Shown in pieces: positions 355-36,500 of a stretch of 40,209 nt of DNA. Within the stretch, counting starts at the first letter, position 1; each line of letters starts with the position of its first letter. A model generated the notes under the pieces. The model was not told the origin of the DNA. It was given only the letters and a program-made list of their open reading frames with translations, and did no database searches. The position numbers and the translations under genes were made by a program. Source of the DNA: Kayfunavirus T147P5; sequence record OZ035809.1; one strand, written 5' to 3'.

Positions 355-759
355 ATGGAAGGACAATATTTAAGCGGTGGTTACTATAAAGTAACTATCA
401 ATGGTAAGGTTCACGGGGTTCATCGGGTTAAATGGGAGATGGCGCATGGGCCAGTTCCGGCTGGCTACGTCATTGACCATATAGACCGGAACACTCTGAA
501 CAATGAGCTATCAAACCTAAGGGCAATACCTAAAGGCGCTAATGGTGCTAATACCTTATCGTCTAGAGAGTTACCAAAAGGAGTCTACTCACGGTTCGCT
601 AAAAGGCTTAACGCTACAGTGTACTATGGAGACATACGCATTGGTGGCATCAAGAGAACCCATGAGCCTACTACCAATCTACAGAAAGTTGAGGACTGGG
701 CTAAAGAGGCCCACGCAAATCTTCTTAAGGAGGTGTATGGTGTGGTTAACGTTTATTAA
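355..759 (+). CDS. HNH homing endonuclease
   Basis: RBS AGGAGG 345-350; 134 aa with HGVHRVKWEMAHGPVPAGYVIDHIDRNTLNNELSNLR (classic HNH motif); inserted between terminase small subunit and spanin, overlapping the spanin start. Confidence 0.8.
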   Translation: MEGQYLSGGYYKVTINGKVHGVHRVKWEMAHGPVPAGYVIDHIDRNTLNNELSNLRAIPKGANGANTLSSRELPKGVYSRFAKRLNATVYYGDIRIGGIKRTHEPTTNLQKVEDWAKEAHANLLKEVYGVVNVY

Positions 760-12387: not shown

Positions 12388-13086
12388 ATGGCTAAAGAGC
12401 AACTGAAGACTTTCACCACTCCGGTAGCTGGTATCGTTGAGCCTTACGCATGGCTGAACAAAGCAGACACCAAGTTTAATGAACGTGGTGAGCATAAGGT
12501 TAACCTGACATTCGACCTGAGCAACCCGAAGGTCCGTAAGATGATTGATGTCTTACAGAAGATTCACGACGATGCGTATGCGAAAGCACTCGCAGACCAC
12601 GAGAAGAACCCACCTCAGGTTCAGCGTGGCAAGAAGCCTATTGAACCACGAGAGGGCGACATGCCGTGGATTGAGAATGGTGACGGTACTGTTACCATGA
12701 AGTTTAAATGCTTCGCGTCTTACCTGAAGGATGGTAAGTCAGAGCCTATCGTATTACGGTTCTACGACACCGATGCTAAGTTAATCCGTGACGTCCCGAA
12801 TATTGGCGCTGGCTCAAAACTGAAGGTCAAGTTTAAAGTCCTGCCGTTCAAGTGGAACGCTGCGACTGGTGCAAGCGTTAAGCTACAGCTTGAGTCCTGC
12901 CTTCTGGTAGAACTGAAGGAGTGGAAAGGTGATGGTACTGGTGGCGATGGCGGCTGGGGTGATGATGAAGACCTCGGTACTGGCTACAAAGCATCAACCG
13001 ATGGTGACTTCGGGTCTGATGACTTCGGTGACGATGGTTACGAAGGTGGTGACGACTCCAACTCTGGTGGCGATTACGACTTCTAA
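12388..13086 (+). CDS. single-stranded DNA-binding protein (T7 gp2.5-like)
   Basis: 232 aa; Gly/Asp-rich acidic C-terminus ending GGDYDF as in gp2.5; RBS TTAGGAG. Confidence 0.9.
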   Translation: MAKEQLKTFTTPVAGIVEPYAWLNKADTKFNERGEHKVNLTFDLSNPKVRKMIDVLQKIHDDAYAKALADHEKNPPQVQRGKKPIEPREGDMPWIENGDGTVTMKFKCFASYLKDGKSEPIVLRFYDTDAKLIRDVPNIGAGSKLKVKFKVLPFKWNAATGASVKLQLESCLLVELKEWKGDGTGGDGGWGDDEDLGTGYKASTDGDFGSDDFGDDGYEGGDDSNSGGDYDF

Positions 13087-13538
13087 TGGCCCAATGGTCT
13101 GCAAAACGGGGGCACTCTGTGGGTGCCTACCGCTCTGGACTTGAAGCCAAGAACCAGCAGTGGCTGGAACAGAACGGCGTCAAAGCGGAGTACGAAAGCC
13201 ATTATATCAACTATGTGATTCCGGCTTCCGACCACAAGTACACACCAGATTTTATCCTTCCCAACGGTATCATCGTGGAGACCAAAGGTATCTTTGATAG
13301 TGATGACCGTAAGAAGCACCTTCTGGTACGAGAACAGCACCCAGAGTTAGACATCCGGTTCGTGTTCTCAAGTTCCCGCTCAAAGTTATACAAAGGGTCT
13401 CCGACCACGTATGGAGCATGGTGCGAAAAGAACGGCTATAAGTATGCCGATAAGTTCATCCCGGTTGAGTGGCTGCGAGAGGCGACTGTACGTCTGCCTT
13501 CAGGTATACTCATCCCCAAGAAGAAAGGAGTTAAGTGA
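13086..13538 (+). CDS. endonuclease I, Holliday-junction resolvase (T7 gp3-like)
   Basis: 150 aa; YVIPASDHKYTPDF.LPNGI.VETKG...SDDRKKHLL.REQHPELDIR.VFSSSR.KLYKGSPTTYG near-identical to T7 endo I. Confidence 0.92.
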   Translation: MAQWSAKRGHSVGAYRSGLEAKNQQWLEQNGVKAEYESHYINYVIPASDHKYTPDFILPNGIIVETKGIFDSDDRKKHLLVREQHPELDIRFVFSSSRSKLYKGSPTTYGAWCEKNGYKYADKFIPVEWLREATVRLPSGILIPKKKGVK

Positions 13539-13762
13539 TGACTCAGGAAGTTAAGGTCGTTCGTCAGCGTCTGACCATTGATAAAATCCCGGTAGGCTAT
13601 GCGTTTATCGTCCACGGTAAGCCGGGTGAAGTGTACGTGAAGATTAGTAACTCTCACGTCTTCAACCATAAGTTACTCCAGATGCACACCACGGATGCTA
13701 ACCGCTTCCAACGTCATCTGAACCTCGTAGCTGTAGAGCTGGTGGTGTATGATGGTGAGTAA
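13535..13762 (+). CDS. hypothetical protein
   Basis: 75-aa ORF; RBS AAGGAG; overlaps flanking genes by a few nt; no T7 counterpart between gene 3 and 3.5. Confidence 0.5.
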   Translation: MMTQEVKVVRQRLTIDKIPVGYAFIVHGKPGEVYVKISNSHVFNHKLLQMHTTDANRFQRHLNLVAVELVVYDGE

Positions 13763-14210
13763 GGTGCAATTCAACCCACGGTCACGGACTGACGCTATCT
13801 TCGTTCACTGTTCGGCTACCAAGCCAGAGATGGACATCGGGGTAGAGACCATCCGTATGTGGCACAAGCAGCAAGGCTGGCTGGACGTAGGCTACCACTT
13901 TATCATCAAGCGCGATGGTACTGTGGAAGAGGGTCGCCCTGTCAATGTCGTAGGGTCACACGTTAAGGACTGGAACTCACGGTCTGTAGGAGTCTGCCTT
14001 GTAGGCGGAATTGACGCTAAGGGCAAGTTTGAAGCTAACTTCACTCAGGCCCAGATGAACTCCCTGCGCAACAAGCTGGCTGACCTGAAGGCCCTGTATC
14101 CTCAGGCAGAAATCAAAGCACACCATGACGTAGCACCAAAGGCGTGTCCAAGTTTCGACTTACAACGCTGGCTGTCTACCAATGAGCTGGTCACTTCCGA
14201 CCACGGTTAA
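13749..14210 (+). CDS. lysozyme / N-acetylmuramoyl-L-alanine amidase (T7 gp3.5-like)
   Basis: 153 aa; TDAIFVHCSATKP, WLDVGYHFIIKRDGTVEEGR, VCLVGGIDAKGKF.ANFT.AQM.SL, HHDVAPKACPSFDL match T7 lysozyme. Confidence 0.92.
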   Translation: MMVSKVQFNPRSRTDAIFVHCSATKPEMDIGVETIRMWHKQQGWLDVGYHFIIKRDGTVEEGRPVNVVGSHVKDWNSRSVGVCLVGGIDAKGKFEANFTQAQMNSLRNKLADLKALYPQAEIKAHHDVAPKACPSFDLQRWLSTNELVTSDHG

Positions 14211-14234
14211 TAAACTCTAAAGGAGAATAACTCA

Positions 14235-14450
14235 ATGATTAAACTTATCGAATTTCTTGGTCGTCTGGTGGTGCGTGGCTATCGTCGTGCTGCGGTACTG
14301 GAACGAAAGGTAGAAAAGAAGACTGCCGATGGTGCGGCTGATGCTGCTGCTATGGCTGACAAGCTGACCATCGCGTCACTGGAAGCTGGCATGAAGGCAC
14401 GTCAAGCTGACACCAAAGCTAACCAGTTGGCTAAGTTCTTCAAAGCCTAA
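14235..14450 (+). CDS. hypothetical protein
   Basis: 71-aa ORF with RBS AAGGAG; Ala/Lys-rich. Confidence 0.55.
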   Translation: MIKLIEFLGRLVVRGYRRAAVLERKVEKKTADGAADAAAMADKLTIASLEAGMKARQADTKANQLAKFFKA

Positions 14451-14468
14451 ACTATCACCTTAGGGATG
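14446..14468 (+). promoter_or_regulatory. phage RNAP promoter (degenerate variant)
   Basis: CCTAAACTATCACCTTAGGGATG; two substitutions in the -4 to -2 region; upstream of primase-helicase. Confidence 0.5.
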
Positions 14469-14515
14469 GGACCGTGAGTCCTGTCCCTCTGTTCGCATTT
14501 GTGATTAAGGAGTGA

Positions 14516-16219
<1,704 letters not shown>

Positions 16220-16234
16220 ATGTCAATGCCCTGA

Positions 16235-16435
16235 GTGCGATTGGAAGTCACCATACGGAGGACACCATTAGTGTTTAAGAAACTTAAAGCTCGCTACCAT
16301 CGGTTCATGTACAAATGGTGGAGTGACGAAGCAACCTGCCTGTCCAACATTCTGGGAGACCAAAGGTTCAACTCTGCGGCATGGAAGAAAGCTAACCGGA
16401 AGTTCATGTATCACTTCTTGCGTACAGACTTCTAG
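16235..16435 (+). CDS. hypothetical small protein
   Basis: ORF-track GTG start at 16235; a better-supported start is GTG 16271 (RBS GGAGGA 16255-16260, 10-nt spacer); basic, Trp-rich. Confidence 0.4.
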   Translation: MRLEVTIRRTPLVFKKLKARYHRFMYKWWSDEATCLSNILGDQRFNSAAWKKANRKFMYHFLRTDF

Positions 16436-16481
16436 GTCTAGACTCAAGGTCATTCACATCGAGTGGCCTTTATGATTAGAC
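16436..16481 (+). promoter_or_regulatory. RNase III-site-like hairpin (analogous to T7 R4.7 region)
   Basis: Inner stem AAGGUCA(16446-16452)/UGGCCUU(16464-16470) identical to the copy at 296; outer stem GUCUA/UAGAC differs but stays complementary. Confidence 0.5.
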
Positions 16482-16498
16482 TAAACGGAGGATTAACC

Positions 16499-16900
16499 AT
16501 GTTTGATTGCATTGAGTGGACCGGGTGTCGAGATAGTTTCGGCTATGGTATGCGAAAGGTCAACGGGAAGGTCCGTAGACTACATCTGATAGCCTTCGAG
16601 GAGGCGAATGGTCAGATACCAGAGGGAATGGTCGTGAGGCACAAATGCGACAACCCTGCATGCTACAATCCAGAACACTTGGAGCTGGGGACACGGGCTG
16701 AGAACAATCACGATAGAGATGTTAGAGGTAGAACCGCTAAAGGCGTGAGACATGGAAGCTCTAAGCTTACACCTGAAATAATACAAGAGGCCAAGATGCT
16801 TTACTCAGGAGGTGGCTGGACTCACCGCTCCTTAGGTAAGAAGTATGGAGTGGGTCACCGCACACTGGCTAGAGCAATTGGAGGAGAAACATGGACTTAA
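16499..16900 (+). CDS. HNH homing endonuclease with C-terminal helix-turn-helix
   Basis: Start chosen at ATG 16499 (RBS GGAGGA 16486-16491); VVRHKCDNPACYNPEHLELGTRAENNHDR; paralogous to 22094 and 33145. Confidence 0.8.
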   Translation: MFDCIEWTGCRDSFGYGMRKVNGKVRRLHLIAFEEANGQIPEGMVVRHKCDNPACYNPEHLELGTRAENNHDRDVRGRTAKGVRHGSSKLTPEIIQEAKMLYSGGGWTHRSLGKKYGVGHRTLARAIGGETWT

Positions 16901-19059
16901 GTAACGTATATGGGTCTGATATCGAGACCAACGGTCTCCTTGACACCGTGTCCCAGTTCCATTGTGGGGTCCTGATTAATGCCGAGTCGAATGAGACCCT
17001 TAAGTATGGGGTAGCGCCGATGGTCGGTATCGTCGGTGGCTTCAAAGAGTATGTACAGAAGGTGGAAGAAATTGCTGCAACGCCTACGGGTATGCTTGTC
17101 TTCCATAACGGTATCAACTATGACGTCCCGGCTATTGACAAGCTGAAGCGTTTGTACTTTGGGAAACGATTTAACTTCCCGAAACACAAGATGATTGATA
17201 CCTTGGTGCTGGGCCGCTTGATGTATCCAAACATTAAGTTCTCAGACATGGGCGCAGTGAAAGCTGGTCGTCTGCCCCCTCAGATGATGGGACGACAGTC
17301 TCTTGAGGCTTGGGGCTATCGTCTCGGTGAGATGAAAGGTGAGTACAAACACGATTACGTTGCCAAGTGCAAGGCTGAAGGTATCGAATATAAGGCTGGG
17401 GACGAATGGTTGTTCCCGTCTCAGGAGATGCTGGACTATAACGTTCAAGACGTTGTGGTCACACTGGCGTTGTTCAAGAAGTTCCTGACTGACAAGTATT
17501 ACTTCCAGTCTGAACAGTTCGCTTTCGACCAGATTTATGCGTTGCGTCTGGAACATGATGCTGCGTGGACCTGTGCGAAGATGGAACGTAACGGCTATCC
17601 GATGAACACCGAGATGGTCGAAGGCTTATATCGTGAACTCACCGTCAAACGTGCAGAGCTGCTGGACAAGCTGCGTTCGACTTTCGGTAGCTGGTATGCA
17701 CCGAAGGGAGGCAAGGAGTTCTTCAAGCACCCACGTACAGGCAAGGACCTTCCTAAGTATCCGCGAGTCGTGTATCCTAAGGTCGGTGGCATCTTTAAGA
17801 AGCCGAAGAACAAAGCTCAACGATTAGGTCTTGAGCCTTGCGAGTTCGACTCACGAGACACGATGGAAGGAGCACCATTCACGCCAATAACTTACGTTGA
17901 GTTTAATCCGGGAAGCGGAGACCACTTAGCGAAAGTTCTGATGGAGCGTGGTTGGGAGCCTGTGGACTTCACTGACACCGGGAAACCTGTAGTTGATGAC
18001 GAGACGTTGGAACACGTTAAGTTACCAGACGCAGAGGCTCAGGCTTGCGTAGAGCTGGTCCGTGAGTATCTGGTGGTCCAGAAGCGCATCGGTCAGGCTG
18101 CTGAAGGTAAGAACGCATGGTTGAAACTTGTAGGTCCAGACGGACGTATGCACGGTTCAATCAACCCATGTGGTGCAGTAACCGGACGTGCGACCCATAG
18201 TTCACCAAACATGGCTCAGGTACCGGCTAACGGTGCTCCGTATGGTGAGACTTGCCGTGGTGCTTTTGGTGCAGCGTGGAACAAGAAGGACGGTAAACCA
18301 GACCCTTGGATTCAAGTAGGTGTGGATGCTTCGGGTCTTGAGCTTCGTTGTCTGGGGAATCGAGCGGCTCCGTTTGATGGTGGAGACTATGCGAAGACTG
18401 TGGTCGAAGGTGACATCCACTGGGCCAACGCAGTCAACGCTGGGTTAGCACCTACCGTTCCACGCGATAAGTCGAACCACGACCACGATGCTTTCCGTAA
18501 TAACGCCAAGACGTTCATCTATGCGTTCCTGTATGGTGCAGGGGCCGCGAAGATTGGACTTATAGTTGGAGGTGGTAAGAAGGAAGGTGCGGCCCTGATG
18601 AAGAAATTCATTGAGGGCACACCAGCTATCAAGGACCTGCGAGAGGCTGTGCAGAACACGCTCATCTCAGAGTCGAAGTGGGTAGATGGTGAGAACATCG
18701 TGAAGTGGAAACGTCGCTGGCTGAAAGGTCTGGATGGTCGCCGCATTCACATCCGGTCGCCACACTCAGCACTTAACGCTCTACTTCAGGGTGATGGTGC
18801 GGTTGTCTGTAAGCACTGGATGGTACTGACTGAGAAGAAACTTGAAGAGGCTGGTTACGGTAACGGATGGGACGGTGACTTTGCGCTAATGGCTTGGATT
18901 CACGATGAATTGCAGATAGCGTGCCGTACTCAGGAGATAGCAGAAGATGTCGTCCGTATTGCTCAAGAGGCGATGCGCGAGGTCGGACGCTTCTATAACT
19001 TCAAGTGTGAACTTGATACGGAGGGTAAGATTGGACCAACGTGGAAAGAGTGTCATTGA
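16891..19059 (+). CDS. DNA polymerase (T7 gp5-like, family A)
   Basis: 722 aa; exo motif SDIETNGLL; pol motifs GKPWIQ.G.DASGLELR, RDNAKTFIYAFLYGAG, HDELQ; collinear with T7 gp5. Confidence 0.95.
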   Translation: MDLSNVYGSDIETNGLLDTVSQFHCGVLINAESNETLKYGVAPMVGIVGGFKEYVQKVEEIAATPTGMLVFHNGINYDVPAIDKLKRLYFGKRFNFPKHKMIDTLVLGRLMYPNIKFSDMGAVKAGRLPPQMMGRQSLEAWGYRLGEMKGEYKHDYVAKCKAEGIEYKAGDEWLFPSQEMLDYNVQDVVVTLALFKKFLTDKYYFQSEQFAFDQIYALRLEHDAAWTCAKMERNGYPMNTEMVEGLYRELTVKRAELLDKLRSTFGSWYAPKGGKEFFKHPRTGKDLPKYPRVVYPKVGGIFKKPKNKAQRLGLEPCEFDSRDTMEGAPFTPITYVEFNPGSGDHLAKVLMERGWEPVDFTDTGKPVVDDETLEHVKLPDAEAQACVELVREYLVVQKRIGQAAEGKNAWLKLVGPDGRMHGSINPCGAVTGRATHSSPNMAQVPANGAPYGETCRGAFGAAWNKKDGKPDPWIQVGVDASGLELRCLGNRAAPFDGGDYAKTVVEGDIHWANAVNAGLAPTVPRDKSNHDHDAFRNNAKTFIYAFLYGAGAAKIGLIVGGGKKEGAALMKKFIEGTPAIKDLREAVQNTLISESKWVDGENIVKWKRRWLKGLDGRRIHIRSPHSALNALLQGDGAVVCKHWMVLTEKKLEEAGYGNGWDGDFALMAWIHDELQIACRTQEIAEDVVRIAQEAMREVGRFYNFKCELDTEGKIGPTWKECH

Positions 19060-19090
19060 CCATCGAACCCAGACCCTACGCTTCCATACC

Positions 19091-19366
19091 ATGCCTACCG
19101 GATGTATCGTCTGCGTGTCCCACAAGAGGAACCAAGATGGGTACTTCCGGTACTCCATGGGAAGCTACAGGAAGGGCAACAAGTTCGCCTTCATGTTCCA
19201 CCGATGGGTGTGGGAGCAGAAGCGCGGACCTATACCAAATGGCTACGAGATAGACCATTTATGCTTGAACCGTGGGTGCTGCAACATAGAGCATCTACAG
19301 TGTATTCCAAAACGCGAACACGTCATTAAGACGAACCGTGAGCGCAAACTTGTTAAGAAGGAGTAA
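19091..19366 (+). CDS. HNH endonuclease (T7 gene 5.3 position)
   Basis: Frame open from within the DNAP 3' end; first ATG after DNAP stop at 19091 (no obvious RBS); GYEIDHLCLNRGCCNIEHLQCIPKREH. Confidence 0.6.
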   Translation: MPTGCIVCVSHKRNQDGYFRYSMGSYRKGNKFAFMFHRWVWEQKRGPIPNGYEIDHLCLNRGCCNIEHLQCIPKREHVIKTNRERKLVKKE

Positions 19367-19371
19367 CCACA

Positions 19372-19656
19372 ATGGCTATGACCAAACGTATGCGAGTAAG
19401 TTTTGACCTGAAGATGGTTGTTAGCTCAAAGGAAGAAGAGACCATGTGTTGCCAACTAGCTGAGCTTACTAAAGCCTACGCTGGTGGTGAGAAGCTGGAC
19501 GGACTTCAGTTGGCTATGGTCAAAGCAGCTATTGAGTTAGGACCTGAGTCTGCTCTTGAGCTGGCACTGAAGAAGGCCCTCAAGGAGGTGATTGTGGAGG
19601 GGTTCGATGGAGACCAGTTCAATGTCTCCAACTTCCGCTTCGAGGTGAAACGATGA
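19372..19656 (+). CDS. gp5.5-like protein
   Basis: 94 aa; N-terminus MAMTKRMRVSFD resembles T7 gp5.5 (MAMTKKFKVSFD); position between DNAP and gp5.7. Confidence 0.65.
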   Translation: MAMTKRMRVSFDLKMVVSSKEEETMCCQLAELTKAYAGGEKLDGLQLAMVKAAIELGPESALELALKKALKEVIVEGFDGDQFNVSNFRFEVKR

Positions 19657-19862
19657 GTGAATACTTACGGGTCCTAGCGGCCCTTAAGTCCTGCCCGAAG
19701 ACCTTCCAGTCCAACTATGTGCGCAACAACGCTGCACTTGTGGCTGAGGCTGCGAGTCGTGGACATCTAAGCTGCCTGTCTATGGATGGGCGTAACAACG
19801 GTGCGTGGGAGATTACAGCTGCTGGCACCAAATTCCTGAACCAACACGGAGGATGCCTGTGA
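19653..19862 (+). CDS. gp5.7-like protein
   Basis: 69 aa; LKSCPKTFQSNYVRNNAALVAEAASRGHLSCL...NGAWEITAAGTKFL almost identical to T7 gp5.7. Confidence 0.85.
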   Translation: MSEYLRVLAALKSCPKTFQSNYVRNNAALVAEAASRGHLSCLSMDGRNNGAWEITAAGTKFLNQHGGCL

Positions 19863-20725
19863 GCGAAAAGAAAATAGCTCTGGTGCTAGACGGTGACTAC
19901 TTAGTGTTCTCTTCTATGGCTGCTGCCGAGGACGAGACAGACTGGGGTGATGGCATATGGACCCTTATCTGCGACCATGAGAAGGCTCGTCGTATCCTTG
20001 AGAACACCATCGCTGAAATCGTTAAGAAGCGTAAGGCGTGGAAAGACGCTAAGATTGTGATGTGCTTTACTGACGATAACAACTGGCGTAAGGACGTGCT
20101 ACCTACCTATAAGGCCAATCGTAAAGGTTCCCGCAAGCCTGTAGGTTACAAGAAGTTCGTAGCCGAAGTGATGGCTGACCCACGGTTCAACAGCTTCCTG
20201 CGTCCTACGCTTGAGGGCGATGACTGTATGGGTATCATCGGGACCAGACCTCAGATTGTTGGATGTGACCATGCGGTTCTGGTGTCCTGTGATAAGGACT
20301 TCAAGACCATCCCGAACTGCGAGTTCTTCTGGTTAACCACTGGTGAAATACTAAGTCATACGACTGCTGAGGCAGACTACTGGCACATGGAGCAGACCAT
20401 CAAGGGTGACACTACAGATGGTTATGGCGGGATTCCTGGGATGGGTGAGGACACCACTCGTGCGTTCCTTGACGAGCCGTACTACTTCGTGCAGGAGAGC
20501 CGTGAGCTTAAGACTGGCAAGAACAAAGGCCAGATTAAGACTGAGTGGAAGAAGTACCCTAAGCGTGAAGACATGACGCTGTGGGACTGCATGGTGACTC
20601 TGGCTGCTAAAGCTGGGATGACCGAGGAGGAACTTCTGGTCCAAGCTCAGGTAGCTCGTATTTGCCGAGCCTCTGACTATGACCCTAAGTCAAAGGAGGT
20701 CATCCTATGGACACCATCCATGTAA
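19853..20725 (+). CDS. 5'-3' exonuclease (T7 gp6-like)
   Basis: Start at ATG 19853 (RBS GGAGGA 19847-19852) rather than 19805; LDGDYLVF, NWRK...YKANRK..KPVGY, SCDKDFKTIPNC, IKGD.TDGY.GI.G, AKAGMTEE match T7 gp6. Confidence 0.9.
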   Translation: MPVSEKKIALVLDGDYLVFSSMAAAEDETDWGDGIWTLICDHEKARRILENTIAEIVKKRKAWKDAKIVMCFTDDNNWRKDVLPTYKANRKGSRKPVGYKKFVAEVMADPRFNSFLRPTLEGDDCMGIIGTRPQIVGCDHAVLVSCDKDFKTIPNCEFFWLTTGEILSHTTAEADYWHMEQTIKGDTTDGYGGIPGMGEDTTRAFLDEPYYFVQESRELKTGKNKGQIKTEWKKYPKREDMTLWDCMVTLAAKAGMTEEELLVQAQVARICRASDYDPKSKEVILWTPSM

Positions 20726-20799
20726 TATACTGGGCCGGACTTCTGGCCCTTTACTGCATGTACAAGTGGTTCGGGTCGAACAACCGCCCCAAACACTGA
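20707..20799 (+). CDS. small membrane protein (gene 6.3 position)
   Basis: Not in ORF track (30 aa); MDTIHVIYWAGLLALYCMYKWFGSNNRPKH; overlaps the gp6 3' end in another frame. Confidence 0.3.
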   Translation: MDTIHVIYWAGLLALYCMYKWFGSNNRPKH

Positions 20800-20851
20800 G
20801 TCTAACAGATAGTCATATCCTATCAATCCAATAGTCATCCATAGGTGAAAC

Positions 20852-20874
20852 ACTAAACTATCACTATAGGGACT
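20852..20874 (+). promoter_or_regulatory. phage RNAP promoter (phi6.5-like)
   Basis: CTAAACTATCACTATAGGGACTT; +1 about 20869. Confidence 0.8.
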
Positions 20875-20935
20875 TTAGGACCTAAGATATGACTATAAGA
20901 TAGACTTTAGTCTTAACTTAAAGAGGAGATTCAAG

Positions 20936-21208
20936 ATGGCGATTAATGCTATTGAAAACGTTGTTAAGCAGTTACAGGAAGAAAGACTCGATGTCCCGAA
21001 CATCTCCCAGTCTGCCATCCAGTTCATGCACGTATTGTTTAACGCAAGCTACGCTGAGAAGATGGGAGCTATCAGTCTCCTCAAGCAGCAAGGCTACAGC
21101 GATGCGTTCATTGCCGGATTCATCAAGGGTCTCCAGTATTGTTCTGACACTCTCGACTCTGCGATTGCTATGCGTCGTGAGCTGAAAGATACCGTTCAGT
21201 TCGATTAA
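20936..21208 (+). CDS. gp6.5-like protein
   Basis: 90-aa ORF with RBS AGAGGAG; assigned by position. Confidence 0.6.
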   Translation: MAINAIENVVKQLQEERLDVPNISQSAIQFMHVLFNASYAEKMGAISLLKQQGYSDAFIAGFIKGLQYCSDTLDSAIAMRRELKDTVQFD

Positions 21209-21222
21209 CTGTAGGAGGGACT

Positions 21223-21447
21223 ATGTGTTTCAGTCCAAAGATTAGCACTCCGAAGCCTTCGGTCCAAGCACCTGAACCAGCACCTCTGAGTGAGGAAGTT
21301 GCGTCAGTTGACATCGGGGCTGAATCGGATGTGGACACCAATGAGACCAAAGGTATCAAAGACCTTAAGGTTAAGAAGGAGTCTGCGCCTAAAGATAAAT
21401 CGTCAGTGAGTCGCGCTATGCGAGCCTCTGGCGTCAACATGGGGTAA
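21223..21447 (+). CDS. gp6.7-like virion protein
   Basis: 74 aa; MCFSPKISTPK...EPAPL..EV.SV resembles T7 gp6.7 N-terminus. Confidence 0.75.
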   Translation: MCFSPKISTPKPSVQAPEPAPLSEEVASVDIGAESDVDTNETKGIKDLKVKKESAPKDKSSVSRAMRASGVNMG

Positions 21448-21451
21448 GACA

Positions 21452-21856
21452 ATGCTACCATATCTCAACTCACGCGAAGGTCGCCACATGTGCGCCTGTC
21501 GCCTCTGGGAAGACGGGCAGTCTAACTTCAAGTCATTCGAGGACTTCAAGGCTCATACTTACCGTATGGCTGACGAGTTCGACGGTGAAGAGTACACAAT
21601 CTACGATGTCTCAGGTCAACCAGTAGCGTATCTCTACATGCTGGCTACCGCATCATGGCACCGACCGACTCCCGGTCTTGACCTTTCAATCGTCGCTATT
21701 CGTCGTGACTCGCAGTCCTCCCGCAAGGTTCTTGAGACTGTCAGACACATCATAGACGAAGAGTGCAAGCGTTGGGGTCTTGGCTGGTATTCTCGTGTCA
21801 AGCATGTTTCCGGGTCGGTAGACATCGTAACAACTAAGGAGATTAATCGTGGGTAA
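21452..21856 (+). CDS. gp7-like protein (host-range/virion assembly, by position)
   Basis: 134-aa ORF between 6.7 and 7.3 homologs; assigned by synteny only. Confidence 0.55.
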   Translation: MLPYLNSREGRHMCACRLWEDGQSNFKSFEDFKAHTYRMADEFDGEEYTIYDVSGQPVAYLYMLATASWHRPTPGLDLSIVAIRRDSQSSRKVLETVRHIIDEECKRWGLGWYSRVKHVSGSVDIVTTKEINRG

Positions 21857-22097
21857 ATCAATCAGTAAGGCTTTCAAGAAAGTGGTGAACAATGCGTTGG
21901 GGACCGTTGGTCTTGGCTCTGATGACGCACCTAAGGTTGTTGAGGCTAAGACCCCAGCAGCACCAGTGGAAGTACCGAACGACAAAGTGGAGGATGTGGA
22001 TACTGAAACAACCGCATCTGACGAGAAGAAAGTGAAGCGTTCCGGTAAGCGTAGCCTTCAGGTCTCTCGTACCTCTGGTGGCGGTATTTCTATATGA
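21849..22097 (+). CDS. gp7.3-like tail-associated protein
   Basis: 82 aa; N-terminus MGKSISKAFKK and C-terminal SGKRSLQVSRTSGGGISI resemble T7 gp7.3. Confidence 0.75.
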   Translation: MGKSISKAFKKVVNNALGTVGLGSDDAPKVVEAKTPAAPVEVPNDKVEDVDTETTASDEKKVKRSGKRSLQVSRTSGGGISI

Positions 22098-22486
22098 CAC
22101 CATGTCATGAATGGGGTGGATACTGCACCAAGGATGGCTACGGTGAAACTAGGGTAGATGGGCGCAAGGTTCGCGTTCATCGCCTAGAGTGGACGAAACA
22201 CTACGGACCCATTCCGCATGACAAAGTGGTTCGCCACAAGTGTGACAACCCTAAGTGTTTTAATATTGAACACCTAGAGTTAGGAACAACACAGGATAAC
22301 ACGGCTGACAGAGTGTCTCGTGGTCGAAGCGCCAAAGGAGAGGATAACGGTAACGCCATCCTCACTATTGATATTGTTAATGAGATTCGCGAAAGTAGCA
22401 TGTCTCAGCGCAAAATAGCGAAGACCTATGGAGTGTCACAGTCTACCGTATCTAAAATCAAACGCAATGTAACGTGGAGGTCATAA
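22094..22486 (+). CDS. HNH homing endonuclease with C-terminal helix-turn-helix (T7 gene 7.7 position)
   Basis: VVRHKCDNPKCFNIEHLELGTTQDNTADRVSRGRSAKG; C-terminal QRKIAKTYGVSQSTVSKI HTH-like; paralog of 16499 and 33145. Confidence 0.85.
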   Translation: MTPCHEWGGYCTKDGYGETRVDGRKVRVHRLEWTKHYGPIPHDKVVRHKCDNPKCFNIEHLELGTTQDNTADRVSRGRSAKGEDNGNAILTIDIVNEIRESSMSQRKIAKTYGVSQSTVSKIKRNVTWRS

Positions 22487-22487
22487 C

Positions 22488-24056
22488 ATGGCAGAACGTG
22501 AAGGATTTGCCGCTGAAGGCGCGAAGTCAGTTTATGATAGATTGAAGAACGGACGACAGCCTTACGAGACCCGCGCACAGAACTGCGCTGCCGTGACCAT
22601 CCCCTCGCTATTTCCCAAGGAGTCCGACAACTCCTCTACGGAATACGTGACGCCGTGGCAAGCTGTAGGTGCTCGCTGCTTGAACAACTTGGCTGCAAAG
22701 CTGATGTTGGCGTTATTCCCTCAGTCACCGTGGATGCGACTGACAGTCTCCGAATATGAGGCAAAGACCTTGAGTCAGGACTCAGAGGCGGCTGCGCGTG
22801 TTGACGAAGGGCTGGCTATGGTAGAGCGTGTGTTGATGGCCTACATGGAGACTAACAGTTTCCGTGTCCCATTGTTCGAGGCTCTGAAGCAGCTTATCGT
22901 CTCCGGTAACTGTCTGCTCTACATTCCAGAGCCTGAACAGGGAACCTACAGTCCCATGCGAATGTACCGCTTAGTGTCCTACGTTGTTCAACGTGATGCG
23001 TTCGGTAACATCTTGCAGATTGTGACTCTCGACAAGGTAGCGTTTAGTGCTCTACCGGAAGACGTGAAGTCTCAACTCAACGCAGACGACTATGAGCCTG
23101 ACACCGAGCTGGAAGTGTATACGCACATCTACCGTCAGGACGACGAGTATCTGCGCTACGAGGAAGTGGAAGGCATTGAGGTAACAGGGACCGATGGTTC
23201 ATATCCTCTGACTGCCTGTCCGTACATCCCTGTACGAATGGTTCGACTGGATGGTGAAGACTATGGTCGTTCTTACTGCGAGGAGTATCTTGGAGACCTG
23301 AACTCGCTGGAGACGATTACAGAAGCTATTACCAAAATGGCTAAGGTAGCCTCCAAGGTGGTGGGCCTCGTTAACCCGAACGGTATCACGCAACCTCGTC
23401 GTCTGAACAAGGCGGCTACAGGTGAGTTCGTGGCTGGTCGCGTTGAGGACATCAACTTCCTGCAACTGACGAAGGGTCAGGACTTTACGATTGCCAAGTC
23501 GGTGGCTGACGCTATCGAGCAACGTTTAGGATGGGCCTTCCTTCTTAATAGTGCTGTTCAGCGTAATGCCGAGCGAGTCACTGCTGAAGAGATTCGTTAT
23601 GTTGCTGGCGAACTGGAGGCGACCTTAGGTGGCGTGTACTCAGTACAGTCACAAGAGCTTCAGTTACCTATCGTCCGTGTGCTGATGAACCAGCTTCAGT
23701 CTGCTGGAATGATTCCTGACCTTCCGAAAGAAGCGGTAGAGCCTACTGTCTCCACTGGTCTGGAAGCGTTAGGTCGTGGTCAGGACTTAGAGAAGCTGAC
23801 TCAGGCAGTCAACATGATGACCGGGCTACAGCCTCTACAACAGGACCCAGACATTAACTTGCCTACACTGAAGCTGCGACTGCTGAATGCCTTAGGCATT
23901 GACACCGCTGGTCTGCTACTGACTCAGGACGAGAAGTTGCAACGCATGGCTGAACAATCCGCTCAAGGAGCTGTGGTCAACGGTGCGTCTGCTGCTGGTG
24001 CTAACATGGGTGCTGCTGTAGGTCAGGGAGCTGGTGAGGACATGGCTCAAGCCTAA
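22488..24056 (+). CDS. portal (head-tail connector) protein (T7 gp8-like)
   Basis: 522-aa ORF directly upstream of scaffold and capsid genes; size and position as T7 gp8. Confidence 0.9.
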   Translation: MAEREGFAAEGAKSVYDRLKNGRQPYETRAQNCAAVTIPSLFPKESDNSSTEYVTPWQAVGARCLNNLAAKLMLALFPQSPWMRLTVSEYEAKTLSQDSEAAARVDEGLAMVERVLMAYMETNSFRVPLFEALKQLIVSGNCLLYIPEPEQGTYSPMRMYRLVSYVVQRDAFGNILQIVTLDKVAFSALPEDVKSQLNADDYEPDTELEVYTHIYRQDDEYLRYEEVEGIEVTGTDGSYPLTACPYIPVRMVRLDGEDYGRSYCEEYLGDLNSLETITEAITKMAKVASKVVGLVNPNGITQPRRLNKAATGEFVAGRVEDINFLQLTKGQDFTIAKSVADAIEQRLGWAFLLNSAVQRNAERVTAEEIRYVAGELEATLGGVYSVQSQELQLPIVRVLMNQLQSAGMIPDLPKEAVEPTVSTGLEALGRGQDLEKLTQAVNMMTGLQPLQQDPDINLPTLKLRLLNALGIDTAGLLLTQDEKLQRMAEQSAQGAVVNGASAAGANMGAAVGQGAGEDMAQA

Positions 24057-33144: not shown

Positions 33145-33594
33145 ATGAAGAACGGGACAGCCAGTGAGAGACTGGCAGAACTGTCAGTAACGGAAGAGTC
33201 TGGCTGTATCCGATTCACAGGCCACTTAGACGGAGAAGGATACGGAAGGATAATGGTGGCTAGGGTTAAGTATATGGCACATCGTCTCTCCTACTCCCTA
33301 AATAAGGGGCCAATACCAGATGGCTATGTTGTTAGGCATAAATGTGATAATCCATCATGCATAAATCCTGAACACCTTGAAGTAGGAACTCAGGCTGACA
33401 ACATTGCAGATAAGGTTTCCAGAGGCCGACAGGCAAGAGGGAGTGGAGCAGGAAGAGCTATACTGACAGAGGAATCTGTTAGGGAAATACGCTCCAGTCC
33501 ATTAAAAGTATCTGAGCTTTCCACCTTATACGGGGTAAGCGTCGTTTCCATACGAAATATATTGAGGAGAAAGACATGGCAACACGTGGTGTAA
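33145..33594 (+). CDS. HNH homing endonuclease with C-terminal helix-turn-helix, inserted between gp15 and gp16
   Basis: YVVRHKCDNPSCINPEHLEVGTQADNIADKVSRGRQARG; paralog of 16499 and 22094; overlaps gp16 start by 19 nt. Confidence 0.85.
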   Translation: MKNGTASERLAELSVTEESGCIRFTGHLDGEGYGRIMVARVKYMAHRLSYSLNKGPIPDGYVVRHKCDNPSCINPEHLEVGTQADNIADKVSRGRQARGSGAGRAILTEESVREIRSSPLKVSELSTLYGVSVVSIRNILRRKTWQHVV

Positions 33595-36500
33595 GGAACG
33601 CAAATCCGGGTAATATCCGTAAGTCCAAAGACCAGTGGGAAGGTGCTATAGGCGATGATGGTGCATTCGTTATCTTCGACAGTCCTGAATCTGGGGTACG
33701 AGCATTAGCGAAAAACCTTCAAAGCTACGGTCGCCAAGGTTATGACTCTATCGAGAAGATTATCAACAGATGGGCACCTCCGAGCGAGAACGACACTCAG
33801 TCCTACATCGACTCGGTTGTATCTGCGACTGGTATTCCTGCAACTCAAAGTCTCGACCTATCGGACCCTGACACCCTGTCTTCTCTGGCACAAGCTATCG
33901 GCTTCCATGAGACAGGCTCCCGGTACGACCCTGAAGTCTACAAACAGGGAGTTGCACGAGCACTCAATGGCATTAGCCCAAAGACTCCACCAGTAAGCGC
34001 TAACGTATTTGACGCACTCACGGAAGGATTAAAGTCGAAACCTAAAGTATCTCTGGGTGAGAACCTTCCGACCGCTGCTGGTTTGAACATTGAGGGTCAA
34101 GCACCTGAAGCTCCCAACGAATCGTTCGGTGAGATGTTCTATAAGGCTACTGGAGAGACCATGCAGGAGCGAGAGGAGCGCTCTACGTGGTTCGGTTTTG
34201 GTTCTGCTACAGAAGCTGAAGTGAAGAACTCTATGGTAGGCGTGGCTATCCGCGCTGGTCAGACTGAGGACTCACTGGATGTCATTGGCGACGTGTTCAA
34301 CCCGACCCGCTGGAACAACCATAAGTGGTCTCGTGAGGAGCTGGACCAGATTCGTAACGCTGGGGTTCTGCCTCAGTATTATGGGGTAATTACTGGTGGG
34401 TCTCCTCAGAACCTGACCGAGCTTATTAACTTGGCTCTTGAGAACCAGAAGTTGGACCAAGAGAAGGCCAAGGCTGGGACTGGTGCTCAGTTAACTGCTG
34501 GTGTGATTGGTGCTGGTGTAGACCCTCTGACATACGTTCCTATCGCTGGACAGGTTGGTAAAGGTGGTAAGCTGGTCAATAAGATGTTCACCGTGGCTGC
34601 TCAATCTGGAGCACTGGCTGGTGTGTCCGAGATGGCCCGTACCTCAGTGGCTGGTGGTGATGCTCATGTGGCTGAAGCTATCCTTGGTGGTGCTCTCTTC
34701 GGTGGTGGTATGACTGCTATCGCCGATGGGTTAGGCAGAGCCTTAGGCCGCAACACTAATGAGTTCGCTGGCCCAGCTACACGTCTGGAAGCTCGTGAGA
34801 CCGCTCGTAATGTTGATGGTCAGGACCTGTCTCGTCTCCCTATTCAGGAAGGTGAGCATACCTTTAGTCATCAAGGCGTTAAGTTCGCTGACGTTCCTAA
34901 CGAGCCGGGTAGTGTACGACTTGAAGATGGTTCAATCCTGATTGGTGAGAACCCTCTGAACCCTAAGACACGTCAGGTCTTTGACGAAGTGATTGAGCCT
35001 GAACGTGCCGCTGCTGGTGTGAACCTTGGTGGTCTTACTGAGATTGGCCTGAAGCTGCTTCGGTCTGAGAACCCTGAGATTCGTGGAGTAGCTGCTGACT
35101 TAGTGCGTTCACCGACTGGTATGCAGTCTGGGGCCTCAGGTAAAATCGGGACAACTGCGTCAGACGTGTTCGAGAGACTTCGTGCTGTGGACCATCGGTT
35201 CTACAACGACATCGACGATGCGGTTACTGAGGCGCTCAAGGACCCATACTTCCAGACAGCATTCTGGCGAGACTCTGGCGCATTCCGTCAGGACATCTAC
35301 CAGCGTGTGTCTATGGCTATCGAAGATGGTAGTGGGAACCTGAAGGCTGAACTAACTCCGGGAGAACTGAAAGTCTACGACCTGCTGAAGAACCAGTTTG
35401 ACGCCAAGCGTGAGATGATGGAGAACCCAGCTATGTTTGGTCGGCCAGACGCTCAGTCTATCTTTCCGGGTAGCCGCTTCAAGGGGACCTACGTCCCGCA
35501 TGTGTATAGCAACCAGATGAAGGAGCTGTACATCAAGGAGCTTGGAAGCCCAGAAGCGCTACAGGAGGCCATCAAGAAGTCATGGTTGACAAGCTATGCG
35601 TCTCGACCTGATGTCAAGAAACGCGTGGACGAGGCACTCTTAGAGGCTGACCCTACGTTGACTCCAGAGGGACTTGCTGCTGCGGTCGATAAGTACGCCA
35701 ACGATAAGGCTTACGGTATCTCTCACACCGAGCAGTTCGAACGCTCATCCGTAATGGAAGAGAATATCAACGGTCTGGTGGGTCTGGAGAACAACAGCTT
35801 CCTTGAGGCTCGTAACCTGTTCGATAGCGATATGTCAATCGTCCTGCCTAACGGTCAGACCTTCAGTGTCAACAACCTGCGTGAGTGGGACATGGACAAG
35901 ATTGTCCCGGCCTACAACCGTCGAGTTAATGGCGATATTGCTATCATGGCTGGTACAGGCAAAACCACGAAGGACATGAAGGACTTGGTTGAGACCATGA
36001 TGAACAAGGCCGGGGATGACGGTAAGTTGAAAGGTGAGGTATCTACCTTACGTGACACCTTGAAGATTCTCACTGGTCGTGCTCGACGTGATGGGGCTGA
36101 TGATGCAGCCTTCGCTACAGTGATGCGTACAATGACAGACCTATCGTTCTTCACTAAGAATGCCTATATGGGTGTTCAGAACTTGACGGAGATTGGTGGT
36201 ATGCTGGCTCGCGGCAACGTTCGTGCTCTGCTGCATGGAGTCCCGATGTTCCGTGACCTAGCCTTCCGTAACAAGAAGGTAGGGGCTTCAGAGATTAAGG
36301 ACCTGCACAATGTTATCTTCGGTAAGGAACTGGATGACTCAATCCGTCCGTCTAAACAGGATGTCATTGACCGTCTGCGGTCTTACAGTGACCTAGGTCG
36401 TGGTGCAGCTACAGCTCTGGGGACTGCCAAGTATTACACTGGTGAACTTGCAGTACGCTCTCCGTTCACTAAAGTCCTCAATGGTACGACCAACTACCTG

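Follow-up and report, generated by a model that had tools for sequence, protein, structure and literature searches.

Five HNH_3 genes in a Kayfunavirus genome

By its sequence, the window (the whole stretch of DNA analysed here, 40,209 nucleotides of Kayfunavirus T147P5, record OZ035809.1) is the genome of a Kayfunavirus, a K1F-like coliphage of the T7 family. When a 10-kb section of it (positions 14000-24000) is compared with phage records, 284 match, of which 200 cover 80% or more of the section. Nearly all of the matching records are K1F-like T7-family podoviruses of the genus Kayfunavirus, with 90-97% identity. The genes follow the order seen in T7, K1F and CR44b; the circular permutation is a different one. 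Five genes in the window encode a protein with the Pfam domain HNH_3 (PF13392), and three of these, referred to hereafter as HNH1, HNH2 and HNH3, are the main subject of this report. The genes and the features that go with them are as follows.

355..759, plus strand: fifth HNH_3 gene, 134 aa, of the T7 gp3.8/CR44b 3.8A type (PF13392, E 2e-17)
16499..16900, plus strand: HNH1, HNH_3 + HTH endonuclease gene, 133 aa (Pfam HNH_3, E 5e-17)
16880..16920, plus strand: replacement GGAGGAG ribosome-binding site and ATG (16891) with recoded gene 5 N-terminus (allele alignment)
19091..19366, plus strand: fourth HNH_3 gene, 91 aa, directly after the DNA polymerase gene, at the T7 gene 5.3 position (PF13392, E 1.6e-19)
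22094..22486, plus strand: HNH2, HNH_3 + HTH endonuclease gene, 130 aa (Pfam HNH_3, E 3e-17)
22488..22664, plus strand: diverged 5' stretch of gene 8, linked to endonuclease-gene presence (mismatches versus AN17P1)
33145..33594, plus strand: HNH3, HNH_3 + HTH endonuclease gene, 149 aa (Pfam HNH_3, E 4e-14)
33576..33724, plus strand: diverged 5' stretch of gene 16, linked to endonuclease-gene presence (mismatches versus AN17P1)

The original prediction, made from the letters of the DNA, had described a paralogous family of three HNH-HTH homing endonucleases at separate loci. The three ORFs are present at the coordinates it gave, all on the plus strand, and their neighbours, judged from ORF positions, are those it named: primase-helicase and DNA polymerase for HNH1, gp7.3 and portal for HNH2, and the internal virion proteins gp15 and gp16 for HNH3. 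As a description of the trio the count of three stands; as a total for the genome it does not, since Pfam identifies five HNH_3 genes. The two further genes are more distant from the trio and are without the HTH tail. The protein of the gene at 19091-19366 shares 47% identity with K1F gp5.3 across 99 aa, and K1F gp5.3 sits within the split (two-part) gene 5 of its phage; gene 5 of the window, unlike that of K1F, is one uninterrupted ORF. This fourth gene has 99.6% DNA identity in AN17P1 and is missing from most other compared genomes. The fifth gene, at 355-759, lies between the small terminase gene (gp18) and the spanin gene (gp18.5), and its product is 53% identical to CR44b 3.8A (tblastn); the allele is shared only with AN24P4 (98.4% identity over positions 1-1400), and most listed relatives lack about 350 bp here. 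A terminase-associated HNH role was considered for the trio and rejected, as none of the three adjoins terminase genes.

Membership of the trio in the HNH family is clear. HNH1, HNH2 and HNH3 score 61.7, 62.2 and 52.4 bits, respectively, against HNH_3 (E 4e-14 to 3e-17, with a curated cut-off of 24.8 bits), each gives a weak Pfam match to zf-His_Me_endon, and PHROG HNH-endonuclease families match them at E 1e-29 to 1e-35. The motif VVRHKCDNPxCxNxEHLExGT..DN..R..RGR, from which their kinship had been predicted, is indeed common to the three proteins, with 44 columns invariant among them. When the trio is aligned with 34 diverse homologues (37 sequences in all), C4, H29, H48, C50, D51, C55, H60, N69 and D72 are the same in every sequence, and N57 is conserved in at least 90%. 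By analogy, H48, D51, H60, N57, N69 and D72 would have catalytic or metal-binding roles, and the conserved C4, H29, C50, C55 and H60 of the window proteins suggest a zinc site.

The HTH-like C-terminal tail that had also been predicted is borne out by three kinds of evidence: Pfam HTH matches in HNH2, which are weak (E about 2e-4) and under the curated cut-offs except for HTH_psq; HTH predictions annotated on the CR44b orthologues; and an AlphaFold2 model of HNH2, the one member of the trio that was modelled, in which a beta-beta-alpha nuclease core is followed by three C-terminal helices (mean pLDDT 84.9). The top Foldseek match of this model in the PDB, along the full length of the model, is I-HmuI (1u3e; 139 columns, E 2.6e-3, probability 1.00), to which the similarity is modest (TM 0.49, 18% identity). 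No PDB match reached E 0.001 or better in this Foldseek search; I-PpoI comes next after I-HmuI, and HTH proteins match the tail as partial matches. A sequence search of the PDB with a profile of the three proteins gave no real relative, the matches being chance ones to ribosomal proteins and HTH proteins at E above 0.02. The trio would thus share the two-domain layout of I-HmuI, with an N-terminal nuclease and a C-terminal HTH, the fold evidence coming from the model of HNH2.

No Rfam family reaches its gathering score anywhere in the window, and hence no group I intron model does, so that HNH1-3 are taken to be free-standing rather than intron-borne. Their ORFs lie between complete neighbouring genes or overlap the ends of those genes. 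Pfam, the structure model and Rfam together support the description of the trio as free-standing HNH + HTH genes of homing-endonuclease type at three separate loci. The CR44b promoter consensus matches ten sites in the window, and none of HNH1-3 lies directly 3' of a match; expression of the three genes therefore presumably relies on the class II and class III transcripts of the genes around them. Each touches or overlaps the genes on either side and holds the ribosome-binding site of the downstream gene within its own 3' end. The gene that follows is in each case an essential one: DNA polymerase (gp5) after HNH1, the portal (gp8) after HNH2 and the internal virion protein gp16 after HNH3.

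Relatedness of HNH1, HNH2 and HNH3

Pairwise identities within the trio are 42%, 40% and 48%, the closest pair being HNH2 and HNH3 (47.6%), whereas orthologues at the same site in other phages are 80-99% identical. T7 gp7.7 is 43-48% identical to each member of the trio, and proteins from Yersinia, Klebsiella, Acinetobacter and Pseudomonas phages of other genera are 38-46% identical to HNH1; T7 gp5.3 gives no match to any of the three. The family is large: tblastn with HNH1 yields homologues from 1,635 phage records, and a profile search of a large protein collection returns 4,059 proteins at E 1e-10 or better. Among the best 120 of these 4,059 family members, ordered by nearness to HNH1, HNH2 ranks 57th and HNH3 104th. 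Within T7 records, tblastn finds only two HNH1-like places, one of which is gene 7.7. We take T7 gene 2.8 to be related to gene 7.7, both being HNH endonuclease-like, non-essential genes.

In a neighbour-joining tree of 78 representatives (500 bootstraps, gp5.3-type outgroups left out), HNH1, HNH2 and HNH3 each fall in a same-site lineage of their own, with bootstrap values of 0.998, 0.84 and 0.55, respectively. The trio forms a clade in 0/500 bootstraps of this tree, and any two of its members are sisters in 0/500. The deep branches are without resolution, which leaves room for an ancient common origin within T7-like phages. A dS of 0.5-2 already separates same-site alleles, so the split between the genes of different sites must go back further.

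The same three sites are occupied in the Citrobacter phage CR44b (Kayfunavirus, HG818823), where the genes 7.7B, 7.7 and 7.7C are each annotated as "predicted homing endonuclease." Like the window, CR44b has insertions at gp4.x/gp5, gp7.3/gp8 and gp15/gp16, with homologues of the trio at all three, and five HNH genes in total. Its 7.7B (133 aa) has the length and site of HNH1 and is 92% identical to it at the amino acid level, and its 7.7C (149 aa) stands in the same relation to HNH3 (84%). The gene at gp7.3/gp8, in contrast, is of another lineage (138 aa, only 48% identical to HNH2), and the remaining HNH genes are placed differently: 3.8A before gene 19 and 3.8B after it in CR44b, against 355-759 and 19091-19366 in the window.

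These observations do not bear out the proposal that the trio is one lineage that spread recently within the genome. Identities of 40-48%, a clade in 0/500 bootstraps and the presence of same-site orthologues elsewhere all speak against it, and in sequence identity the three are no nearer to each other than to T7 gp7.7, an outcome that had been named beforehand as telling against the idea. The gp15/gp16 site, pointed out in the original prediction as no HNH site in T7, is not new either, as comparison with CR44b shows, whose predicted homing endonuclease 7.7C is annotated there; a gene of the HNH3 lineage is found at gp15/gp16 in ~10% of related GenBank records. To our knowledge, T7 has no HNH gene at this junction.

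Empty sites, alleles and linked flanks

Base-level empty-site junctions could be mapped at all three sites. Among records compared with 600-700 bp of flank on each side of the endonuclease gene, a gene of the same lineage is carried by 12/225 at site 1 (HNH1), 6/219 at site 2 (HNH2) and 21/212 at site 3 (HNH3), and most of the other listed records are shorter over this interval by about 390, 380 or 430 bp, respectively. The insertions are not universal in relatives, as the original prediction had held they should not be: most of about 220 related records show precise empty sites. Once duplicates are removed, leaving 32 loci for each site, 4, 10 and 7 of them are occupied at sites 1, 2 and 3.

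At site 1, HNH1 is preceded by the primase-helicase gene and small ORFs, overlaps the start of the DNA polymerase gene (16891) and is inserted within the first codons of gene 5, with a net insert of 388-389 bp by comparison with K1F and AN17P1, in which the site is empty. Where there is no insert, gene 5 begins GGAGGATTAACC-ATGTTTGACC-TTAAG (MFDLK...). In filled genomes, the old ribosome-binding site, ATG and TTTGA of gene 5 now open HNH1, and it is the 3' end of HNH1, GGAGGAGAAAC-ATGGAC-TTAAGT, that gives gene 5 a new ribosome-binding site and ATG. The empty allele thus reads GGAGGATTAACCATGTTTGACC followed directly by TTAAGAGTATCTGGGG, with the gene 5 N-terminus MFDLKSIWG, and the filled allele reads ...GGAGGAGAAACATGGACTTAAGTAACGTATATGGG, with the N-terminus MDLSNVYG. 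In the alignment, a recoded block of about 15 bp at the start of gene 5 is present in 4/4 filled and 0/6 empty genomes, and two more filled and four more empty loci agree. The linked polymorphism at this site spans only these ~15 bp, and the comparison in 50-bp bins gives no significant difference. From the arrangement of the two alleles, translation of gene 5 is predicted to depend on signals inside HNH1.

Site 1 is not reserved for this gene: GA2A has a methyltransferase-like gene at the junction instead. In a metagenomic T7-like contig, a protein 71% identical to HNH1 (P0056) is encoded between primase-helicase and polymerase. Two apparent parallels were set aside. "Gaps" of 349-383 bp at site 1 in some IMG/VR loci arise from a different upstream gene that disturbed the anchor and are not insertions, and T7 gp4.7 (135 aa), which occupies the position of HNH1, was rejected as a homologue, with 23% identity over 44 aa.

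At site 2, HNH2 occupies the position of T7 gene 7.7. The gp7.3 gene ends at 22097 and the portal gene gp8 starts at 22488; the ATG of HNH2 shares bases with the gp7.3 stop codon (ATGA), its last codons contain the gp8 ribosome-binding site, and a net 379 bp stands in place of the short gp7.3-gp8 spacer. T7 gene 7.7 is like HNH2 in length (130 aa), in place (between 7.3 and 8) and in its HNH_3 + HTH layout; it differs in belonging to a phage of the genus Teseptimavirus and in a divergence as great as that within the window trio. HNH2 DNA is 97-99.5% identical in six records from five phages, including Vec13 (99.5%), KM02 and PDP351P3, and in Vec13 and other records the orthologue is annotated as "HNH endonuclease." At least seven further phages, including CR44b, EFA-1, ST31, GA2A and Pipis, carry an insert of the same size and of other sequence, and the gp7.3/gp8 junction is occupied by at least three protein lineages. 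A metagenomic protein 66% identical to HNH2 (P0053) is encoded between an ORF at the gp7.3 position and the portal gene of another T7-like contig.

Downstream of HNH2, the start of gene 8 differs sharply from that of AN17P1: its first 178 bp hold 38 mismatches, almost every one at a third-codon position, and the 120 bp that follow hold 2. Over the first 200 bp 3' of the site, mean identity to the window is 90-97% in filled loci (n=10) and 81-84% in empty ones (n=22), with p 5e-6 to 4e-3 (50-bp bins, Mann-Whitney); these p-values, here and at site 3, treat related genomes as independent, which overstates their significance, and they are indicative only. Across the 32 loci, the 50-bp bins show no filled/empty difference upstream or farther downstream than 200 bp. 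Among ten compared genomes, one downstream haplotype is common to all of the lineages found at site 2. The stretch at 22488-22664 is a candidate for a co-converted or cleavage-immune segment.

At site 3, gp15 ends at 33142 and gp16 starts at 33576, so that the last 19 nt of HNH3 lie within gp16. The net insert between the gp15 TAA and the gp16 ATG is 429 bp, and the empty site reads TAA-CATA-ATG; this junction was read from unaligned anchored sequences, as MAFFT had set gp16 against the HNH gene. HNH3 DNA is 97-99% identical in SD6, PDP21P1, ST20 and others. Immediately past HNH3, a run of 130 bp differs from AN17P1 at 34 positions, and a weaker divergence of gene 16 runs on to about 33870. 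One gp16 start haplotype, MATRGVRN.NPGN.RKSKDQWEGA..., is common to 5/5 filled genomes, and another, MATRGIRNNNPGNIRVSKDQWEGMT..., to 5/5 empty genomes. Filled and empty loci differ in the bins +1..+50 (p 0.019) and +51..+100 (89% vs 76% identity, p 0.0017). Linked flanks of this kind are the pattern that would be expected if each gene and a short resistant downstream stretch move together.

As a separate observation, ATGGCNNNNCGTG occurs at the starts of gp8 and gp16 and nowhere else in the genome; the pattern was defined after the fact.

Alleles 96.8-99.5% DNA-identical to HNH1, HNH2 and HNH3 occur in three non-overlapping sets of phages, and in no record are two of the three alleles found together at 95% DNA identity or above. 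AN17P1, the closest backbone compared (95.9% identity), is without all three genes, and alleles of 97-99.5% identity are found in backbones that are only 93-95% identical. Same-site alleles are either 97-99% identical, which places them high among genome windows (80th-98th percentile), or 70-74% identical, in the lowest few percentiles. The backbone identity of about 95% is far above the 70-74% between distant same-site alleles (dS 1.4-2.1), and the alleles are therefore much older than the backbones that carry them. Across eight orthologue pairs, with dS up to 1.4-2.1, dN/dS is 0.07-0.17; the proteins are therefore constrained, and the ratio indicates that they are working proteins.

Homing and its alternatives

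Taken together, the evidence makes it very probable, in our view, that the trio consists of free-standing HNH homing-endonuclease genes from three distinct lineages, each specific to its site and separated from the others since ancient times. We are similarly confident that these proteins belong to the T7 gp7.7-like, I-HmuI-like type, which combines a His-Me finger nuclease with a C-terminal HTH, and their presence in one genome most likely reflects three independent acquisitions or inheritances and not duplication within the genome. The literature fits this picture: T7-like Citrobacter phages are known to differ in whether they carry homing endonuclease genes (PMC4925675), an endonuclease-gene polymorphism of 397 bp has been seen inside a single Kayfunavirus stock (PMC8861465), and gene 7.7 is among the deletions in a reduced-genome T7 (PMC12153263).

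The comparison with I-HmuI of phage SPO1 (PDB 1U3E) rests on a common layout of N-terminal HNH nuclease and C-terminal HTH, with the likeness in fold drawn through the HNH2 model. I-HmuI, I-HmuII, I-BasI, I-TwoI and I-PfoP3I introduce a single-strand nick a few bases away from the insertion site, and several enzymes of the I-HmuI type sit in phage DNA polymerase genes (PMC3428280). I-HmuI and its relatives are encoded by group I introns, unlike the free-standing genes of the window, whose proteins are shorter than these enzymes and carry conserved Cys/His residues. I-TslI of PhiI/W31 has been classed with the I-HmuI-type HNH enzymes of polymerase-gene introns (PMC3428280). Both I-TslI and K1F gp5.3 resemble the gene at 19091-19366 in being HNH genes at gene 5 of T7-like phages, and both are relatives of that gene, not of the trio.

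By analogy with these enzymes, the trio may be capable of cleavage and mobility. During co-infection with a relative that lacks the gene, the enzyme would nick or cut the empty allele near the insertion point, as in the I-HmuI model, with the first 15-200 bp of the downstream essential gene as the likely target. T7-type recombination, given what is generally known of it, would then repair the break using the gene-carrying genome, and the repair would copy in both the endonuclease gene and the short diverged downstream stretch, leaving the recipient resistant.

An alternative is that one endonuclease lineage was recently copied to three places in this genome by intragenomic (ectopic) homing. 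It would explain the common domain architecture and the 44 invariant residues, the status of HNH2 and HNH3 as the closest pair (47.6%) and the sharing of ATGGCNNNNCGTG by the gene starts after these two, a pattern recognised after the fact to which we give little weight. However, identities of 40-48%, no higher than those to T7 gp7.7 or to HNH proteins of phages from other genera, the failure of the trio or any pair to form a clade in 500 bootstraps, the 80-99% identical same-site orthologues in other phages (with CR44b homologues at all three sites) and a between-site divergence older than same-site dS values of 0.5-2 make such copying extremely unlikely. It is also conceivable that these are domesticated genes that serve the phage, through degradation of host or competitor DNA, HTH regulation or help in replication or packaging, and not mobile selfish elements. 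Purifying selection (dN/dS 0.07-0.17) fits a phage-benefiting function too, the genes are translationally coupled to essential genes, with gene 5 apparently needing signals inside HNH1, and the authors of a study of Hafnia phage Ca propose that virions in which the endonuclease gene is deleted are non-infectious (PMC8861465). We nevertheless consider domestication highly improbable: each gene is missing from most close relatives, which are viable isolates; T7 gene 7.7 is among the deletions in a viable reduced-genome T7 (PMC12153263); a single site may hold several unrelated alleles or, as at site 1 of GA2A, a methyltransferase-like gene instead; and diverged flanks linked to the gene are a signature of homing.

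The patchy distribution might, alternatively, have come about mainly by repeated precise loss from a full ancestor under vertical descent, with no present-day homing. HNH1-type and HNH3-type genes are common to CR44b, EPr2 and UKE1, which could be shared ancestry, and the accepted life cycle of homing endonucleases includes loss. For Hafnia phage Ca, a deletion of 397 bp that arose spontaneously is on record (PMC8861465). Loss as the main process is, even so, highly unlikely in light of the 97-99.5% identical alleles in 93-95% identical backbones, of their absence from the closest backbone compared, and of the fact that no relative has two of the three alleles at 95% or above. The linked downstream stretches, ~20% diverged and differing at third-codon positions in gene 8, fit import from a distant donor and not deletion. 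It is just as improbable that the genes are inactive passengers or were only formerly mobile, as purifying selection argues against decaying passengers.

A more far-reaching reading, which we regard as tentative and on balance doubtful, extends homing to competition between phages. Here the diverged 5' stretches of genes 5, 8 and 16 would be what protects a genome from three distinct nucleases directed at the starts of essential genes in co-infecting relatives, the five stacked cassettes would serve as weapons in inter-phage competition (marker exclusion), and the family would have been retargeted between similar gene starts. Over long times, such retargeting may have run between starts of the form "ribosome-binding site, ATG, GC-NNNN-CGTG," a motif found at the gp8 and gp16 starts and at no other position in the genome.

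With three long-separated, site-specific homing lineages as the preferred explanation, the finding itself is an ordinary one. Genes of the gp7.7 type are a recognised variable part of T7-like phage genomes, and the three sites are already known from CR44b, where their genes are annotated as predicted homing endonucleases. Of mild interest are the takeover of the gene 5 start signals by HNH1, the junction shared by several lineages and the predicted target stretches. For phage engineering, a simple deletion of HNH1 is not possible, because the translation signals on which gene 5 is predicted to depend lie inside it. We found no published biochemistry on gp7.7-type proteins of T7-like phages in the literature; the mapped empty sites and linked stretches provide concrete predicted target sites. 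For the phage itself, the trio and the two further HNH genes, ~1.9 kb in all, are probably dispensable cargo.

Two further HNH_3 genes in the window

Besides the trio of HNH_3 genes with a C-terminal helix-turn-helix (HNH1, HNH2 and HNH3), the window encodes two other members of this domain family:

19091-19366, + strand, fourth HNH_3 gene (91 aa, with the motif HLCLNRGCCNIEHL), corresponding in position to T7 gene 5.3
355-759, + strand, fifth HNH_3 gene (134 aa), T7 gp3.8 / CR44b 3.8A type

The fourth gene lies immediately 3' of the DNA polymerase gene, and its product, which has no helix-turn-helix tail, is 47% identical to K1F gp5.3. Copies occur in AN17P1, the closest backbone compared (99.6% identical), and in EFA-1 (82%), and the gene is missing from most of the other genomes compared. 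The fifth, flanked by the small terminase gene gp18 (30-293) and an Rz-like spanin gene, encodes a protein without the Cys residues. This allele is shared only with Kayfunavirus AN24P4 (98.4%); most listed relatives lack ~350 bp at the locus, and some carry other alleles there that are annotated as homing endonucleases.

Gene 5 is uninterrupted in the window, whereas in K1F it is split into two parts with gp5.3 between them. The K1F annotation gives gene 5 as a two-part join (12917-15686) with the HNH gene gp5.3 inside it at 15015-15410, and this insertion has been described as a putative group I intron with a homing endonuclease gene (PMC4925675). No K1F-type gp5.3 insertion is present in gene 5 of the window. 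Near-identical gp5.3-type proteins are encoded by PDP21P1, CLBP1 and PDP351P3.

A motif common to the gp8 and gp16 starts

The insertion points of HNH2 (gp7.3/gp8) and HNH3 (gp15/gp16) are each closely followed by a copy of one motif:

Window 22488-22500 and 33576-33588, ATGGCNNNNCGTG, gp8 and gp16 start codons
AN17P1 21918 and 32672, ATGGCNNNNCGTG, gp8 and gp16 start codons

The motif occurs exactly twice per genome versus about 0.27 expected, for a pattern defined after the fact. Both empty sites, i.e., alleles without the endonuclease gene, also share TAAGGAG upstream and TTCGC downstream, the latter altered in filled alleles. Its presence at both starts may be due to chance, or it may point to target sites that are related.

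Variant cargo at the gp4.x/gp5 junction

BDX03P1 carries a diverged version (80% aa identity) of the HNH1-type cassette, with an extra 12-bp segment upstream of the gene (region about 16900-16945). This segment forms CTAAGCTATCACTGTAGGA, similar to the phage promoter consensus CTAAACTATCACTATAGGA. The BDX03P1 allele may carry its own promoter; HNH1 of the window has none. In Escherichia phage GA2A (IMG/VR copy, about 630-1495), the junction holds an 876-bp insert at the equivalent of about 16490 in the window, whose product, from its FDGVGGG ... SPCQGFS motifs alone, looks like a cytosine-5 DNA methyltransferase. Just after the insert, gene 5 begins in its "empty-type" form, and the gp4.x/gp5 junction therefore takes varied cargo.
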